Origin: Natronospirales bacterium | GTDB taxonomy: Bacteria; Pseudomonadota; Gammaproteobacteria; Natronospirales; REEB76 | Reading direction: 5' to 3' | DNA: 54,712 nt | Assembly: GCA_018971605.1 (NCBI GenBank) | Contig: JAGXAL010000003.1 | Span: forward strand, 1 to 54,712 | Shown: in pieces, positions 1 to 6,070 of the stretch | Layout of the letters: each line of letters begins with the position of its first letter | How positions within the stretch are numbered: position 1 is the stretch's first letter | The notes under the pieces: generated by a model | What the model was told of the DNA's origin: nothing | The model's input: only the letters and a program-made list of their open reading frames with translations | The model's database searches: none | Program-made: the position numbers and the translations under genes

Positions 1-368
1 GACTGCATGGGCAGGGTGCCGAGACCGGCAAAGCGCTTGGGATGCTTGGCAACTACGCCGGCAATGTGGTCGTTGAGTATCCTGGCCAAGTCCAGAGTAT
101 CTTTCGGCTTGGCCCAGTAACTGAACATCACCGGCACGGTGGACAGCACCTGCACAGCCACGCCGTGTGTGTCGCATTCCTTGATGCGGGTTGGCGGATC
201 CCAGCAATTGGCTTCGATCTCGCGGAAAAATTCTCCATCGCGCAGCATGCGCGCGCAACCGGGGCCGTGATGCTCCAACTGGATGAAGCCGCCGTAGCCG
301 TAGCGCTCCTTCAGGTTCGGCCAATTCTCCGGCAAGATGTGGGTGTGGATGTCAATCTTGAATGTCAT
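1..368 (-). CDS. nbaD: 2-amino-3-carboxymuconate-6-semialdehyde decarboxylase (ACMSD, amidohydrolase family); 5' part, runs off the left edge
   Basis: Not in the ORF track. Manual translation from ATG 368 gives [28 protein letters not shown]...[17 protein letters not shown]...LNDHIA...[11 protein letters not shown], with the HxH metal motif and typical ACMSD segments. AGGAAAAGG lies upstream and nbaC is nearby. Confidence 0.92.
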
Positions 369-375
369 TACCTTT

Positions 376-400
376 TCCTCTCTCCCTCTTCAGGGGAGAG
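376..400 (-). repeat. REP-like palindrome, family A (CTCTCCC-loop-GGGAGAG-AGGA), 5'-truncated copy
   Basis: Minus strand reads CTCTCCCCTGAAGAGGGAGAGAGGA, with the same stem and tail as the copies at about 2078, 6965 and 8758. Confidence 0.6.
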
Positions 401-408
401 CATAAGCG

Positions 409-467
409 GGCTCATGTCTGAGTTAAGTGGTACGCAGAAGTGCGTCCATCTAAAAGAATTATTAAGC
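409..467 (-). mobile_element. Degenerate integron attC site (59 bp) at the 3' end of the cupin gene
   Basis: Minus strand GCTTAAT-AATTC-TTTTAGAT-GGACGCACTTCTGCGTACC-ACTTAAC-TCAGAC-ATGAGCC is collinear with the short attC layout RYYYAAC-AATTC-RTTCAAGC...GCTTAAC-TCAxGC-GTTRRRY. The cupin TAA stop lies in the R''-like box. Confidence 0.6.
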
Positions 468-842
468 GTCTCCCGTTGGTACGATAGCTGCAGTCTCAAC
501 CATCAAAATGATCGCCCGCTCGGGAGCGCGAGTGCGATGCACAATTCCTTTTGGTATGACATAGCCCTGCTGTGCCTGAAGTTCAATGGACTGGTCTTCG
601 AGGTCGATGATGAAACGGCCCTCGAGGACAAAGAAAAACTCGTCGTCGTTGGCATGCTTGTGCCAGTGGTACTCACCCTGCATTACACCCAGCCGGATCG
701 CAGAGTCATTGACCTTGCATAAGGTCTGATTAAACCACTTGGCCTCGACCTGCGAGACCACACTGCGAACGTCCACGAGGCTGAGCGCGGGAAACAAGAT
801 GTTCAGGTTGGTGGTGTAAGGGGAATCGCTTGGCTGTGACAT
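462..842 (-). CDS. Cupin-domain protein (mannose-6-phosphate isomerase-like small cupin)
   Basis: Cupin motifs GEYHWHKHANDDEFFFVLEG and VIPKGIVHRT. ATG 842 has GAGG upstream and is preferred over the ORF-track start at 884. Confidence 0.85.
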   Translation of the reverse strand: MSQPSDSPYTTNLNILFPALSLVDVRSVVSQVEAKWFNQTLCKVNDSAIRLGVMQGEYHWHKHANDDEFFFVLEGRFIIDLEDQSIELQAQQGYVIPKGIVHRTRAPERAIILMVETAAIVPTGDA

Positions 843-880
843 GCAGTGCCTCAAAAGATTGGCTCGAGGAGACAAGGAAA

Positions 881-1504
881 TCACCCATTACTTGGGGGAT
901 TTGTCCCGGTGATTTTGGTGATATCGGCGTCCACCGTTATCCAATTGACGTGAAGATTCGGACGTTTTTTGAAATACATCAATAATTGGTCACGCTTGAC
1001 AAAGCAGTATGAGCACCACGGTGCCCAATATTCGAGCACGGTAAATTTGCCGGTGATGTCTGGTTCAATGATAGGCGATTTCTCATCGGGGATCAGAGAC
1101 CCAAGCCATGTATGTAAGGGTTTGCCATTTTGTAGCGGGGCAGGAGATGAGAATACGCGATCCAACTGCGCATCAAGATCGCTGGATTCGGCGGTACGCG
1201 AGAATATTTCGTTACCGGCCTTGTCGAAAACATAGAGCTGTGGCAAGACAAACACGGTGGCGCTAACCGTGCCGTGTTTACCCTCTTTCATGGCTTTCGC
1301 TTCTTTTGTCGACGCCTCCTGAATGCTTTTCTGCATCTCCGTCAATAGTTGTGCTTGTAGTATCTTGTTTGGCACTTTGTAGTGATACAGGCTGACTGAG
1401 ATCGGCAGACCATGGAATCCATCATAGAAATTAGGTGTTGCTGCCAACACAACACCGCAGGAAAGGCCAATCAGTATGATTGTTGATTGCAATAGTGGTT
1501 GCAT
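881..1504 (-). CDS. Exported thioredoxin/TlpA-like protein, apparently circularly permuted
   Basis: Signal-peptide-like N-terminus (MQPLLQSTIILIGLSCGVVLA), motif GKFTVLEYWAPWCSYC near the C-terminus, GGAGG before ATG 1504, visibly lower GC than the flanks. Confidence 0.7.
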   Translation of the reverse strand: MQPLLQSTIILIGLSCGVVLAATPNFYDGFHGLPISVSLYHYKVPNKILQAQLLTEMQKSIQEASTKEAKAMKEGKHGTVSATVFVLPQLYVFDKAGNEIFSRTAESSDLDAQLDRVFSSPAPLQNGKPLHTWLGSLIPDEKSPIIEPDITGKFTVLEYWAPWCSYCFVKRDQLLMYFKKRPNLHVNWITVDADITKITGTNPPSNG

Positions 1505-1518
1505 AATGTGATCCTCCG

Positions 1519-2040
1519 TTAACATTTCTTCGGAGGATCCATAATTACCCCGCATTTCTTGCAGGTACGGTTCTCCAAGCTCCCGAAAAATCGGTCAAAC
1601 ACCGGCGGGAACTGAGTTTCGATGTTTTCCAGGTGGAAGTATTCCTCGTAGAGTTTGTGGTGGCATTGCTCACAGAACCACAGCAGGCCGTCTTGTTCTT
1701 CCGGCAAACGCGGGCGCTCGATCACCAAGCCCACCGTATCGGCTTTACGCTGCGGCGAATGTGGCAGATGTGGCGGGATCAGCAGGATTTCGCCTTCGCG
1801 GATGGATATATCCACCGGCTTGCCGTGCTGCATGGTTTTCAAGACCATATCGCCTTCCACCATGTAAAAGAATTCTTCGCCGGGGTCGTCGTGGAAATCC
1901 TTGCGCGCGTTGGGTCCGCCCACCACCTGCACCACGAAGCCGGTGTCGGTGTAGATGCGCTTGTTGCCGACCGGCGGCTTGAGCAGCTCGCGGTGATCGT
2001 CAATCCATTTTTTGAAGTTGATGGGGGTCAGGTCCCACAT
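1519..2040 (-). CDS. nbaC: 3-hydroxyanthranilate 3,4-dioxygenase
   Basis: [24 protein letters not shown] and PHSPQR motifs; rubredoxin-like CEQC and CKKC pairs. Confidence 0.97.
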
Positions 2041-2077
2041 GAGCGTTTTCTCCTCGAGCCGGCGAGAGGAAGAACCC

Positions 2078-2115
2078 CCTCACTCTAATCTCTCCCCCGG
2101 AAGGGGGAGAGAGGA
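2078..2115 (+). repeat. REP-like palindrome, family A
   Basis: CCCTCACTCTAATCTCTCCCCCGGAAGGGGGAGAGAGGA: a CCCTCAC leader followed by a perfect TCTCTCCCCC/GGGGGAGAGA stem. Confidence 0.75.
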
Positions 2116-2131
2116 CTAGGTGCGAACCCAA

Positions 2132-2551
2132 TTATACGGTCGCGATACACTTCAGTTCGATTGCAATCGGCGTTGGTAACGCGGTGACTTGAACAGTTGT
2201 GCGGCAGGGTTGATTATCCTTGAAGTATTCCGCGTACACCCGGTTGTAAATAGCGAAGTCACGCTGCATGTCGGTGAGAAACACCGTGACGTCCACCAAC
2301 TTCTCCCAGCTCGAGCCGGCATCTTCGAGAATCAAGCGCACGTTCTCGAATACCGAACGGCATTGCGCCTCGATGTCGTGGCTGATGACCTTGCCGCTGG
2401 CGTCGAGTGTCACGCCGGGAATGTCCTTGCTTCCGCGCTTGCGCGGCCCGACGCCGGACAGAAACAGCAGATTGCCGACGCGGCGTGCGTGCGGATAGGC
2501 TCCGACGGGTTCCGGCCCTTGCGCCGAGTCGATCTTTTCGGACTTATTCAT
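2132..2551 (-). CDS. nbaF: RidA/YjgF-family protein, probable 2-aminomuconate deaminase
   Basis: PVGAYPHARRVGNLLFLSG, PCRTT and IELKCIA RidA motifs. Overlaps the ALDH stop and precedes nbaC; substrate inferred from context. Confidence 0.85.
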   Translation of the reverse strand: MNKSEKIDSAQGPEPVGAYPHARRVGNLLFLSGVGPRKRGSKDIPGVTLDASGKVISHDIEAQCRSVFENVRLILEDAGSSWEKLVDVTVFLTDMQRDFAIYNRVYAEYFKDNQPCRTTVQVTALPTPIAIELKCIATV

Positions 2552-3989
2552 ATTTGATACAGACGTTGCGCGCTTCGGTGAAAAACCGCATGGCTTCCCA
2601 ACCGCCTTCGCGGCCGGTGCCGGATTGTTTGACGCCGCCCATGGGCACGCGCAAGTCGCGCAGCATCCAGCAATTTACCCAGATGAGGCCGGCTTCGAGG
2701 CGCGCGGCGATACGGTGGCAGCGTGAGACATCGCGGCTCCACAGCGAGGCGGCGAGTCCGTAGGGCGTGCCGTTGGCCCAGGCGATGGCCTGTTCTTCGC
2801 TGTCGAAGGGAATCAGCGTGACCACGGGACCGAAAATTTCTTCCTGATTGGTGCGACAGTCTGGAGGCAGGTTCTCGATGACCGTAGGTTCCACAAACCA
2901 ACCCTTGGCGCAGCGGCCATTGAGGTTCGCGCGTCGCCCGCCGCACAGGACTTTGCCACCTTCCTTGCGCGCCAAGTCCAGATAACCCAGCACTTTTTGC
3001 AGGTGTGGCTCGGAGACCAGCGCGCCTTGTTCGGTCTGTTCGTCCAGCGGATCACCGAGCCTGAGCGCCTGGGCGCGCTTCACGAACTCGTCGCGGAAAC
3101 GTGCGTACAGACTGCGCTCGATAAATATGCGTGAGCCGCACAGGCAAATTTCGCCCTGGTTGGAGAAGGCCGCGCGCAGGCTTTCCGCCACGGTGCGCTC
3201 GAAGTCACAATCCGCGAATACCAGCGTGGGATTCTTGCCGCCCAACTCCAGCGAGAGTTTCTTGAATTTGGGCGCAGCGTGGCTGGCGATGTTGGCGCCG
3301 GTTTTGGTGCCGCCGGTGAAGGAGATCGCCTTCACTTCGGGATGCTCGACCAGCAGCGCGCCGGCCTTGGGGCCGAGACCGTGCACCACGTTGAGTACGC
3401 CCGCCGGCAAACCCGCTTCAATGCACAGTTTGGAAAACAGATAAGCCGTCATCGGCGTCAATTCGGAGGGCTTGGCCACCACGCAGTTGCCGGCGGCGAG
3501 CGCCGGCGCGAGCTTCCAGGTGAAGAGGTACAGCGGCAGATTCCAGGGCGAGATGCAGCCCACCACGCCAAGCGGCGAACGCAATGTGTAGTTGATGGCG
3601 CCGGATTCCATGGCGTGCGATTCGCTCGCGAATTGACTGGCGGCGGCGGCAAAGAAGCGCAGATTGGCGGCGGCGCGCGGGATGTCCACGCTGCGCGCAA
3701 CCGCGAGCGGTTTGCCGGAGTCCAGGCTTTCGGCGCGCGCCAGTATTTCAAGATCGCGTTCCACCAGCGTTGCGAGCCGGTGCAGCCACTCGCCGCGCTC
3801 CGCGGCGGGCGTGGCTGACCATTGGGGAAAGGTGCGCCGGGCCGCGGCCACGGCGTTGTCTATGTCAGTCTTGTGGGAGTCGGGGATGCGTGCGTAAGCC
3901 TGTCCCGCGGCCGGCTCGAAGTCCTCGAGCCAGCCGCCGGAGACGGCGGGTACCAGTTGTCCGTCTATATAGTTGGAGATCGTTTGCAT
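2544..3989 (-). CDS. nbaE: Aldehyde dehydrogenase, probable 2-aminomuconate 6-semialdehyde dehydrogenase (ALDH8-like)
   Basis: ISPWNLP, SFTGG, LELGGKNP (catalytic Glu), GEICLCGSR (catalytic Cys) and EEIFGPV; operon with nbaC and ACMSD. Confidence 0.88.
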   Translation of the reverse strand: MQTISNYIDGQLVPAVSGGWLEDFEPAAGQAYARIPDSHKTDIDNAVAAARRTFPQWSATPAAERGEWLHRLATLVERDLEILARAESLDSGKPLAVARSVDIPRAAANLRFFAAAASQFASESHAMESGAINYTLRSPLGVVGCISPWNLPLYLFTWKLAPALAAGNCVVAKPSELTPMTAYLFSKLCIEAGLPAGVLNVVHGLGPKAGALLVEHPEVKAISFTGGTKTGANIASHAAPKFKKLSLELGGKNPTLVFADCDFERTVAESLRAAFSNQGEICLCGSRIFIERSLYARFRDEFVKRAQALRLGDPLDEQTEQGALVSEPHLQKVLGYLDLARKEGGKVLCGGRRANLNGRCAKGWFVEPTVIENLPPDCRTNQEEIFGPVVTLIPFDSEEQAIAWANGTPYGLAASLWSRDVSRCHRIAARLEAGLIWVNCWMLRDLRVPMGGVKQSGTGREGGWEAMRFFTEARNVCIKYE

Positions 3990-4258: not shown

Positions 4259-6070
4259 TCAATGGGGCGATGTGGAAGCGGGCGCGGGATCGCGCGTGAT
4301 AGTGGTGTACTGCTTCGCCAGTTTCTCGAAGTGTGGGTCGTCGTGCAGCGGCGTGATGAACTCGGGATTGATGGCAAGATCATTGCAGGCGATCGGAGCG
4401 GCGGCGCAGAGGCCTGGCAACATTGACATCGCGGTTTCCTTCTCGCCCAGCGCCAGATAGAGCTGTATCAGGCCGGATTGCGAGAACGGACTGAGCTTGG
4501 CGTGGCTCAGACTAGCCAGCGCGGCCAGCGCCTTGGGACGCAGCGTGGGTTCGAGCCGCGTCTGATACGTGAGCCGGCCCGCCTCGATCAACTTCCTGTC
4601 CAAGGCTGTACTTGGTTGTGCGAGATCGAACGCTTTGACCGCGTCCTCGCCGCGCTGCATCTCGGCGTACGCAAAGGCGAGATAGAACGCAGCATCGATG
4701 CCGTGCGGCGAGAGCCTGTTCAGCGCCAGCGATGCCGCGACCATCTGCGGCCAGTTGGACAGATCCTGGTAATACGAGGCGAGACTAACCTGCACTTCTG
4801 CGCTGTCCGGATCGAGTCGCGCGGCTTCCTGTGACTGGGCCAGCGCTTGCTGGATCGGCAGCACGTCGCTGTAAACGTCATGAGCGGCCGCATTGCTGGG
4901 ATCGAGCGCCAGTGCCTGCTTCAATTCCGCCTTGGCCTCGGCGATGCGGTTGTCGTTGACATCCGCATTGCCCAGTGCCACCAATGCGTTGACGTTGTGT
5001 GGGTCGAGCGCCAGCGCCTTCTGCGCCGCCGAGCGGATTTTCGGTAGGACTTCCTTCAGCGGCAGCGTCGAGATTTCCGACAACTTTACGTAAGTTTCTG
5101 CCAGCCCGGCCCAGGCGTCGGCATAGCTGGGATCGAGTTTCACGGCCTGCTGGAAATAATCCTCTGCCGCTTGCATATCAGCCGCGGTGAAGCGATCCAT
5201 GGCCGCGAGACCCTTGAGATAGAGTTGGTGCGCCTCCGGATTCTGCGTCGGTGCGCCTTGCATCGCAGCAAACTTCACCTTGAGCGCATCCGCGACCGCG
5301 ACGGTGATCTTGTCCTGCACTGCGAAGATGTTCTTGAAACTGTCGTCGTAGTGCTCCGACCACAGTTGCCGGCCGGTGACCGTGCTGACCAATTCCACCG
5401 ATACCCGCACCTGATCGCCGTCGCGCTGGATGCTGCCATCCACGATGTGCGCCACGTTCAGCGCCTTGCCGATCTCGGCGGGTGATTGTTTGCCGGTTGA
5501 ATATCTGGAAGCCGTGCCCCATGCGATCACGGTGAGGCCGGTGTTCTGGCCCAGGGCATCGGTGAGTTCCTCGGTAATGCCGTTGCTGAAATACGCCTGT
5601 TCGGGATCACCGGAGAGGTTGGTGAATGGCAACACCACAATGGAAGCGGAGGGCGGATTGAAGATAGGCGCTGCCGGTTTGGCCTCGGTTTGGGCGGCCG
5701 TCTGTTCCGCCGCTACGCGTTGTTCGGAAAAGCGGAAGGCGAAAATACCGGAGACCACCACCGCCGAGATGATCAGGGGCACGACGACGGCGCCGAGCTT
5801 CCAGTGCCGCCGCTGCCAAGTGGTTTGGTTGTCGAGCGCCGCAGGCTTGACCAGCAGCCAAGACAGCGCCAGCGCTACCGGAAAGCCCGCAATCAGAATG
5901 ATGATGATCGCCGGCACTGCCGCCGACCAGCCGAAATACGGAAAGGCACGCGCTACAATCTGAATCAGCACCGCGATGGACGCGCCATACCACGCTGCGA
6001 CGCGGTAGATATGGTGCTGCTTGAGGCGAGTGAAGATACCCGGCGGGTTGTTGTTTTCGTTACGGTCCAC
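4259..6070 (-). CDS. Membrane-anchored TolB-N-like (SIVVLPF) domain + TPR protein
   Basis: About three N-terminal hydrophobic helices after LKQHHIYRVAAWY, then SIVVLPFTNLSGDPEQAYFSNGITEEL, then several TPR-like repeats (AVKLDPSYADAW, ALALDPHN, ALALDPSN). Confidence 0.8.
   Translation of the reverse strand: MDRNENNNPPGIFTRLKQHHIYRVAAWYGASIAVLIQIVARAFPYFGWSAAVPAIIIILIAGFPVALALSWLLVKPAALDNQTTWQRRHWKLGAVVVPLIISAVVVSGIFAFRFSEQRVAAEQTAAQTEAKPAAPIFNPPSASIVVLPFTNLSGDPEQAYFSNGITEELTDALGQNTGLTVIAWGTASRYSTGKQSPAEIGKALNVAHIVDGSIQRDGDQVRVSVELVSTVTGRQLWSEHYDDSFKNIFAVQDKITVAVADALKVKFAAMQGAPTQNPEAHQLYLKGLAAMDRFTAADMQAAEDYFQQAVKLDPSYADAWAGLAETYVKLSEISTLPLKEVLPKIRSAAQKALALDPHNVNALVALGNADVNDNRIAEAKAELKQALALDPSNAAAHDVYSDVLPIQQALAQSQEAARLDPDSAEVQVSLASYYQDLSNWPQMVAASLALNRLSPHGIDAAFYLAFAYAEMQRGEDAVKAFDLAQPSTALDRKLIEAGRLTYQTRLEPTLRPKALAALASLSHAKLSPFSQSGLIQLYLALGEKETAMSMLPGLCAAAPIACNDLAINPEFITPLHDDPHFEKLAKQYTTITRDPAPASTSPH

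Follow-up and report, generated by a model that had tools for sequence, protein, structure and literature searches.

The sequence considered here, referred to as the window, is the whole stretch of 54,712 nucleotides (contig JAGXAL010000003.1, assembly GCA_018971605.1) from a Natronospirales bacterium, and the gene of interest occupies positions 881 to 1504 of its minus strand. The encoded protein of 207 residues has a CxxC motif of thioredoxin type close to its C terminus and, well ahead of it, a Leu-Pro segment resembling the cis-Pro loop of thioredoxins. The analysis makes it probable that this protein is an exported, circularly permuted thioredoxin fold of TlpA/ResA type, derived from a tandem-domain ancestor and active as a thiol-disulfide exchanger. 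A preliminary description of this DNA, in which the strand of the gene was not mentioned, had proposed a natural permutation of the fold, and this proposal is supported in that both halves of the protein appear homologous to the canonical halves, in swapped order, and are conserved in this arrangement within a family.

The Coding Sequence and Its Motifs

The list of open reading frames and the translation place the gene between an ATG at 1504-1502 and a TGA at 883-881. A Shine-Dalgarno-like GGAGGA lies within the 14-nucleotide gap that separates the gene from its upstream neighbor, encoding 3-hydroxyanthranilate 3,4-dioxygenase (3-HAO), directly after the TAA of the latter; because it precedes the ATG at 1504 by 7 nucleotides, this start is favored over an in-frame ATG at 1555. 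The features of the gene, all on the minus strand, are as follows (residues are numbered from the ATG at 1504; HMM, hidden Markov model).

881..1504, minus: coding sequence of the proposed permuted thioredoxin-fold protein, 207 amino acids plus the TGA stop at 881-883 (open reading frame list, translation, 20 full-length homologs)
1512..1517, minus: Shine-Dalgarno-like GGAGGA, 7 nucleotides upstream of the ATG (read from the sequence)
1442..1504, minus: predicted Sec signal peptide, residues 1-21 (hydrophobic core, VLA/A cleavage-type site; family consensus VSA/ATP)
1283..1396, minus: edge strand 37-43 and long helix 46-74, residues 37-74 (AlphaFold secondary structure)
1145..1255, minus: putative cis-Pro loop, β-hairpin (89-93, 99-104) and helix (110-119), residues 84-120 (hhalign, family HMM, AlphaFold)
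1241..1243, minus: codon of Pro88, proposed cis-proline of the active-site loop (invariant, 61/61; aligns to (I/L/Y)P(T) of canonical domains)
1046..1144, minus: linker, residues 121-153 (hhalign start at canonical column 6; VIA alignments)
908..1045, minus: strand, CxxC helix, strand and short helix, residues 154-199 (Pfam PF00085, hhalign, PDB profile matches, AlphaFold)
1004..1015, minus: codons of the CxxC active site, Cys164-Ser-Tyr-Cys167 (read from the sequence; cysteines invariant, 61/61)

The motif WAPWCSYC corresponds to residues 160-167, and exactly 40 residues remain after Cys167, the number previously given. In the predicted structure these form one helix (165-179) and one strand (186-192), as had been anticipated, together with an additional 4-residue helix. 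The segment LPQLYVFD, earlier placed about 75 residues before the CxxC, begins at Leu87, 77 residues ahead of Cys164. The window protein and every family member examined depart from the canonical order of thioredoxins, the cis-Pro unit preceding the CxxC unit instead of following it. The N terminus, from its hydrophobic stretch and the family consensus, is probably a signal peptide, by which the protein would be exported; a signal-peptide-like N terminus is seen across the family in the alignment of close homologs, and the mean predicted local distance difference test score (pLDDT) of the AlphaFold model is about 57-60 over residues 1-20, below that of the domain.

Homology of the Two Halves

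Comparisons of sequence profiles support the view that both halves of the protein are homologous to complementary halves of canonical thioredoxin/TlpA domains, with their order swapped. The two halves, whose separate comparison had been suggested in the preliminary description, were each aligned by hhalign with a reference consisting of 49 canonical domains cut from tandem proteins. The C-terminal half matches canonical columns 6-63 with a probability of 98.9% and an E-value of 3.3e-17. The N-terminal half, LPQLYVFDKAGNEIF..., falls on canonical columns 99-130, which comprise the (Y/L/I)PT strand, the hairpin and the last helix (P 7.7e-5, for a single comparison). Residues 84-120 would therefore be the C-terminal half of a canonical thioredoxin, here placed first, and residues 154-199 the N-terminal half, here placed last; the alignments and the structural model both support these assignments.

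Matches to individual thioredoxins and to domain models follow the same division. The family profile matches solved thioredoxins in the PDB with an E-value of 1e-9 over their residues 15-62. Thioredoxin 5jy5 is tiled by the profile, its residues 15-62 corresponding to the C-terminal half and residues 66-106 to the N-terminal half, and ResA (4nmu) gives the same swapped pair of matches. With Pfam PF00085, the window protein matches only positions 19-59 of 103, in its C-terminal part, and in 14 of the 14 other members tested the match is to positions ~17-64, again always in the C-terminal part of the protein; some members, such as P0033 (36.8 bits), pass the PF00085 cut-off, yet they too cover only positions ~17-62. 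The complementary part of the fold is recognized in P0005, where residues 63-104 match positions 60-89 of Thioredoxin_2. The best sequence matches of the family are StoA, DsbE and ResA.

Predicted Structure

An AlphaFold model calculated with a 21-sequence alignment has a pLDDT of 76, and a second model, calculated with a 61-sequence alignment, has a pLDDT of 88.7 and a predicted template modeling score (pTM) of 0.81 and consists of one compact domain. Its elements are a strand (37-43), a long helix (46-74), two strands (89-93 and 99-104), a helix (110-119), a strand (154-160), a helix (165-179) and a strand (186-192). Cys164 and Cys167 lie between strand 154-160 and helix 165-179, so that the CxxC is at the N terminus of a helix, and Pro88 is followed by the hairpin and its helix.

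It should be recognized that the two structure-comparison methods used, VIA-align and Foldseek, follow chain order. VIA-align was run widely on both models, with a second look on the second model, and gave no full-length thioredoxin match for either, as expected of aligners of this kind. Dozens of thioredoxins do align in VIA-align, only over their own residues 1 to ~62-67 (about 60 residues, Z ~3), and these alignments sit on model residues 30-40 through 195-198; they imply that strand 37-43 substitutes for thioredoxin strand 1, residues 154-192 being the CxxC unit. TlpA-like chains (residues 38-109 of ResA, 2f9s, as well as 3hdc, 3kcm, 4hqz and 3raz) align only to model residues 122-203, with the N-terminal parts of ResA and the others aligning from residues 122-136 onward, which, together with the start of the hhalign match at column 6, supports the equivalence of the linker (121-153) to the N-terminal extension of TlpA-like domains. 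Folds of the strand-strand-helix-strand-helix-strand type, including Top7-type designs and RsgI (Z 5.8), align to model residues 85-195, suggesting a single sheet to which both the hairpin half and the CxxC half contribute. The proximity of Pro88 to the CxxC is deduced from the antiparallel pairing that these VIA matches imply.

The model also suggests that residues 37-74 correspond to the strand and connecting helix located ahead of the cis-Pro loop in TlpA-like folds. This assignment depends on the TlpA/peroxiredoxin topology, in which the elements that normally follow the CxxC unit are presumably those found here as the N-terminal strand and long helix. On this basis, the protein would be a strict circular permutation, opened directly behind the strand to which the CxxC helix leads.

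The top Foldseek rows were APOBEC/cytidine-deaminase structures with template modeling (TM) scores of at most 0.28. A deaminase was rejected, since no His/Cys-x-Glu is conserved ahead of the cysteines and invariance is limited to Pro88, Cys164 and Cys167.

A Conserved Family with the Same Motif Order

A word-indexed search found 20 homologs of 195-253 amino acids with 46-64% identity to the window protein over 92-100% of its length, and in their alignment all 20 have the same motif order and the same C-terminal end; homologs of the same order, which the preliminary description had proposed to look for, thus exist. HMMER, run exhaustively against 1.84 billion cluster representatives (E ≤ 1e-3), gave 83 matches. 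In 57 of these, counted from the match table, Pro88 and the CxxC fall within one aligned stretch, and all 57 are shorter than 310 amino acids. The spacing from the LP to the CxxC is ~77 residues in the family and the tail after the CxxC ~40; where tails are longer, they are charged low-complexity extensions with no second thioredoxin half. A second word-indexed search with the family profile yielded 26 matches, 3 of them new, too few for coupling analysis.

An alignment of 61 members was assembled from the window protein, 8 close and 52 remote homologs; P0049, P0063 and P0076, which have long tails, and the fragment-like P0059 (111 amino acids) were left out from the 57. The only invariant residues are Pro88, Cys164 and Cys167, and 90% or more of the members have Leu87, Gly97, Trp160, Ala161, Trp163 and Asp194 in common; six of the 61 members failed the LP pattern yet carry the proline. 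The CSYC dipeptide, noted previously as unusual, is real, and the CxYC form is shared in the close subfamily, with Tyr166 conserved in at least 90% of 21 close sequences, but the wider family is mostly CxPC. P0059 starts at the position equivalent to the LP and reads W-N-P-A-C instead of W-C-x-x-C. It could be a variant with a single cysteine or a fragment produced by gene calling. A match to P0025 (1771 amino acids, E 4.8e-21) was set aside as spurious: it is a repetitive, eukaryote-like protein in which ten repeats match the low-complexity helix (query residues 31-96), and its score looks like a false positive from summed repeats.

Judged from these alignments, the gene belongs to a conserved bacterial family without a name. 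Its members are publicly named "hypothetical protein" or "TlpA family protein disulfide reductase," and the nearest ESM Atlas clusters are without a Pfam family.

Probable Derivation from Tandem TlpA-like Domains

Certain tandem multi-domain TlpA-like proteins are colinear with the family profile across the junction between two domains. In P0069 (464 amino acids, three domains), HMM positions 56-151 align unbroken from the GIPTF loop of domain 1 to the WATWCGPC helix of domain 2 (40.5 bits), and the family HMM again runs unbroken from domain 2 to domain 3 (42.5 bits). The two outer halves of P0069 give matches of their own: HMM positions 95-155 fall on the CxxC half of domain 1, and positions 54-91 on the cis-Pro half of the last domain (17.5 bits). 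P0060 contributes one further junction-spanning match, so that three matches across P0060 and P0069 span both motifs, as does a match to P0073, a longer protein with a family domain. The distance from an LP to the next CxxC in the tandem proteins is 76-85 residues, compared with 77 in the permuted family.

An alignment that spans the junction, combined with outer halves that stand alone, is the signature of permutation by duplication, in which a tandem array loses its outer halves. The family is thus most likely derived from a tandem TlpA-like protein in which the opening half of one domain and the closing half of its successor were lost. The tandem proteins themselves keep complete domains in the normal order, whereas the permuted family keeps a single junction-spanning unit with the strand and helix that precede it.

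Comparison with Known Systems

The closest counterparts of the family are the TlpA/ResA/CcmG (DsbE) reductases (PF08534 Redoxin and PF00578 AhpC-TSA; structures 1JFU, 2F9S and 4NMU), with which it shares export (here predicted), the W-A-x-W-C-x-x-C strand and helix, an acidic residue six positions before the first cysteine, an (L/I)P loop and hairpin with a conserved glycine, and an N-terminal extension before the active-site strand. It differs from them in having the cis-Pro half first and the CxxC half last, with new ends just after the strand that follows the CxxC helix, in scoring far below the curated cut-offs, and in the CxYC, rather than CxPC, of the close subfamily.

An engineered permutant of Escherichia coli DsbA, cpDsbA_Q100T99 (1UN2), is likewise a thioredoxin-fold protein with its termini between the CxxC and cis-Pro halves and the cis-Pro half first; the title of the entry states that the global fold of the permuted DsbA is preserved. 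It is, however, man-made, of DsbA type and has a helical insert, and the structural match to the window protein is poor. The equivalence of its cut site to that proposed here is our assumption from the name of the entry and from the topology of DsbA.

The best structural match among those that depend on chain order is the TRXL4 domain of UGGT (5MU1, 5Y7O), with a Z of 6.5, which is below the informative level of the tool, over 109 residues and with a root mean square deviation of 3.4. In the passages concerned, PMC7687155 and PMC8024514 describe TRXL4 as a thioredoxin/DsbA-like domain built from non-consecutive stretches of sequence; it differs from the present protein in being eukaryotic and not catalytic. 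A passage of PMC3091736 notes circular permutations among thioredoxin-like folds, citing for them a classification paper, its reference 41. In the full-text literature, in a coverage outside which subscription journals lie, no paper was found on a natural permuted CxxC thioredoxin or TlpA protein. What would be new here is a natural, conserved CxxC family with swapped halves, permutation among thioredoxin-like folds and an engineered DsbA permutant being already known. The classification paper is, we presume, that of Qi and Grishin from 2005.

Few catalytic scaffolds have been studied as well as the thioredoxin fold, in which one half of the chain contributes the CxxC and the other the cis-proline. 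From a conserved natural family with these halves swapped it would follow that the active site can withstand a rewired chain in nature and not just in engineered proteins, and the junction-spanning similarity to tandem proteins would illustrate how permutation by duplication takes place. In such proteins, domain models and structure searches bound to chain order detect half a domain, with the consequence that they are labeled "hypothetical" or mislabeled as ordinary TlpA; inventories of envelope redox enzymes would therefore undercount them.

Proposed Mechanism and Alternative Explanations

In the proposed structure, the chain would pass from the signal peptide through the edge strand and long helix to the Leu87-Pro88 loop, the hairpin and its helix, and from there through a linker of ~35 residues to the strand, CxxC helix and final strand. 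The hairpin strand that follows Pro88 is expected to pair antiparallel with the strand preceding the CxxC, and this pairing would put Pro88 beside Cys164 and Cys167, as in every thioredoxin. Disulfide exchange with periplasmic partners would then proceed with Cys164 as the attacking and Cys167 as the resolving cysteine, and the reduced state would probably be maintained by DsbD, as for other TlpA-type proteins. Glu158 lies six residues ahead of Cys164, where E. coli thioredoxin would have its buried Asp26. Both the W-A-x-W-C context and the wider family's CxPC conform to the TlpA/ResA type.

By its sequence, the protein is most likely a periplasmic thiol-disulfide oxidoreductase, and probably a reductase fed by DsbD; the redox activity, the direction of electron flow and the link to DsbD are inferred, as are export and the contact of the proline with the CxxC, while the motif order, the homology of both halves, their conservation and the prediction of a single domain are shown. 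The genome encodes DsbD, DsbA-like genes and eight Redoxin-type matches. The DsbD gene is at G000:C17:3774-5608 (an open frame of 753 amino acids), and a canonical TlpA-like Redoxin gene directly follows it. This pair constitutes an ordinary envelope reducing pathway on which the permuted protein might also draw. The tyrosine of the CxYC subfamily may, speculatively, shift the redox potential.

Several observations weigh against the interpretation of the protein as a permuted thioredoxin of TlpA type. The window protein is under every curated cut-off, with 15.8 bits compared with a cut-off of 23.5 for PF00085 and 15.1 compared with 123.15 bits for TIGR00385 (DsbE); its scores for ResA (NF002854, 14.3 compared with 170 bits) and StoA (NF041202, 15.9 compared with 210 bits) are likewise under the cut-offs. 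The match of the N-terminal half is weak taken alone (hhalign probability 61.7%), as is that of the second stretch of 5jy5, which has a conditional E-value of 0.0058 and an independent E-value of ~1e3. Foldseek matched neither model to any PDB structure at E ≤ 0.001. The permuted DsbA, 1un2, was at rank 17 with a TM score of 0.22 in Foldseek for the first model and is absent among the matches listed for the better model (the best 50 in VIA-align and Foldseek), and the best VIA scores, Z 6.3-6.5, are to UGGT, 6.5 being below the level at which the tool is informative. The 61 aligned members were picked after their motifs had been viewed, so that the invariance of these motifs is partly built in and somewhat inflated, and in P0059 the first cysteine is replaced by Asn. 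Finally, the gene context is unconserved and hence provides no support for any particular substrate.

The short chain of just 40 residues past the CxxC, the scores under the curated cut-offs and a patchy occurrence, in 3 of the 18 other genomes of the genus, would also fit a decaying, C-terminally truncated copy of a thioredoxin or TlpA, in which LPQLYVFD resembles a cis-Pro segment by chance. This case, which the preliminary description had itself set against the permutation, is hardly credible: homologs of identical layout exclude it, as 20 of them have full length and the same end and 57 of the 83 remote matches have the same layout, Pro88 is invariant in 61 of 61, the ribosome-binding site is strong, with stop and start coupled to those of the neighbor, and AlphaFold is confident across the whole mature chain. 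It is also conceivable, although very unlikely, that each chain supplies just half a thioredoxin and that the fold is completed in a domain-swapped dimer or oligomer, where hairpin and CxxC halves from different subunits would pack together. Permuted or split α/β folds can swap in this manner and a linker of ~35 residues is long enough for both arrangements, but a confident monomeric domain is predicted (pTM 0.81), and the linker matches the inter-domain spacing of tandem TlpA proteins (76-85), which is compatible with intramolecular packing.

Two further explanations accept the permuted fold and concern its function. The protein may not be a general reductase but an oxidase or isomerase, a redox sensor, or a carrier of a metal or reactive metabolite, the CxYC then signifying a shifted redox potential and the position in a 3-hydroxyanthranilate operon a dedicated role. 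Tyr166 is indeed present in 90% or more of the 21 close members, in a family that is otherwise CxPC, and Tyr at the second variable position of CxxC is typical of glutaredoxin and of DsbC/DsbG rather than of TlpA; moreover, the gene lies between those for 3-HAO and the decarboxylase in two genomes, the copies having 61% identity. Such a function is nevertheless judged unlikely, since these two operon cases are kin and not independent, other relatives adjoin mutS or ddl, and the Trp-x-x-Trp-Cys context, with Glu158 at the presumed position of Asp26, is typical of reductases. For a family of catalytically intact, naturally permuted TlpA-type thioredoxins of tandem ancestry, it would be a further and distinctly unlikely step that the CxYC subfamily was recruited to the 3-hydroxyanthranilate operon, its periplasmic targets being thiol adducts or the oxidative damage caused by this auto-oxidizing aminophenol or its quinone-imine products; if true, this would connect a redox enzyme of the envelope with an aromatic pathway of the cytoplasm. 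A general, DsbD-fed reductase with a permuted TlpA-type fold remains the preferred interpretation.

Genomic Context and Distribution

The genes surrounding that of the permuted protein in the window are the following.

1519..2040, minus: upstream neighbor, 3-HAO (Pfam PF06052, E 5e-59)
462..884, minus: downstream neighbor, cupin-domain protein (Pfam PF07883); its GTG start overlaps the TGA stop (GTGA)
2132-2551, minus: RidA-like gene
2544-3989, minus: aldehyde dehydrogenase
3-368, minus: ACMSD-type amidohydrolase, cut by the end of the window

Positions 3-3989 of the minus strand thus constitute a run of genes for 3-hydroxyanthranilate (lower kynurenine-type) catabolism that contains the permuted thioredoxin gene. 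The presence of an exported redox protein within the operon of a cytoplasmic pathway is odd. A congeneric genome (G006) has a copy with 61% identity directly between the 3-HAO and amidohydrolase genes, with no cupin gene between (L024, G006:C33, 1-3627). In G002 (59% identity) and at L001 and L002, the gene is between an α/β-hydrolase gene and mutS; at L003 and in G016, it follows ddl (D-Ala-D-Ala ligase). No partner gene is common to the contexts of the window, G006, L001, L002, L003, G002 and G016.

One congeneric member of 173 amino acids, L027 (G016:C40, 1504-2025, minus), is without the long helix insert and ends exactly at ...WITVDAD, from which it appears that nothing past the last strand is needed. 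The occurrence of the gene is sporadic. Of 31 related genomes, the window's own among them, 5 contain it, corresponding to 3 of the 18 other members of the genus; among 300 genomes drawn evenly from the class, it was found in 3 (at most 11 candidates being scored per genome). A scan of genomes with a wide profile gave 25 loci, nearly all matching only query residues from ~118-152 onward. Two of the 25 with longer matches, L034 and L038, were inspected and rejected, as they are canonical TlpA-like proteins with extra N-terminal domains.

Elsewhere in the window, positions 4259-6070 of the minus strand encode a protein of 603 amino acids with tetratricopeptide repeats (TPR) at residues ~298-416. 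It has a sub-threshold match to the CcmH/CycH TPR model (E 1.4e-4, 22.2 bits compared with a cut-off of 42) and may have a role in the envelope or in cytochrome maturation.

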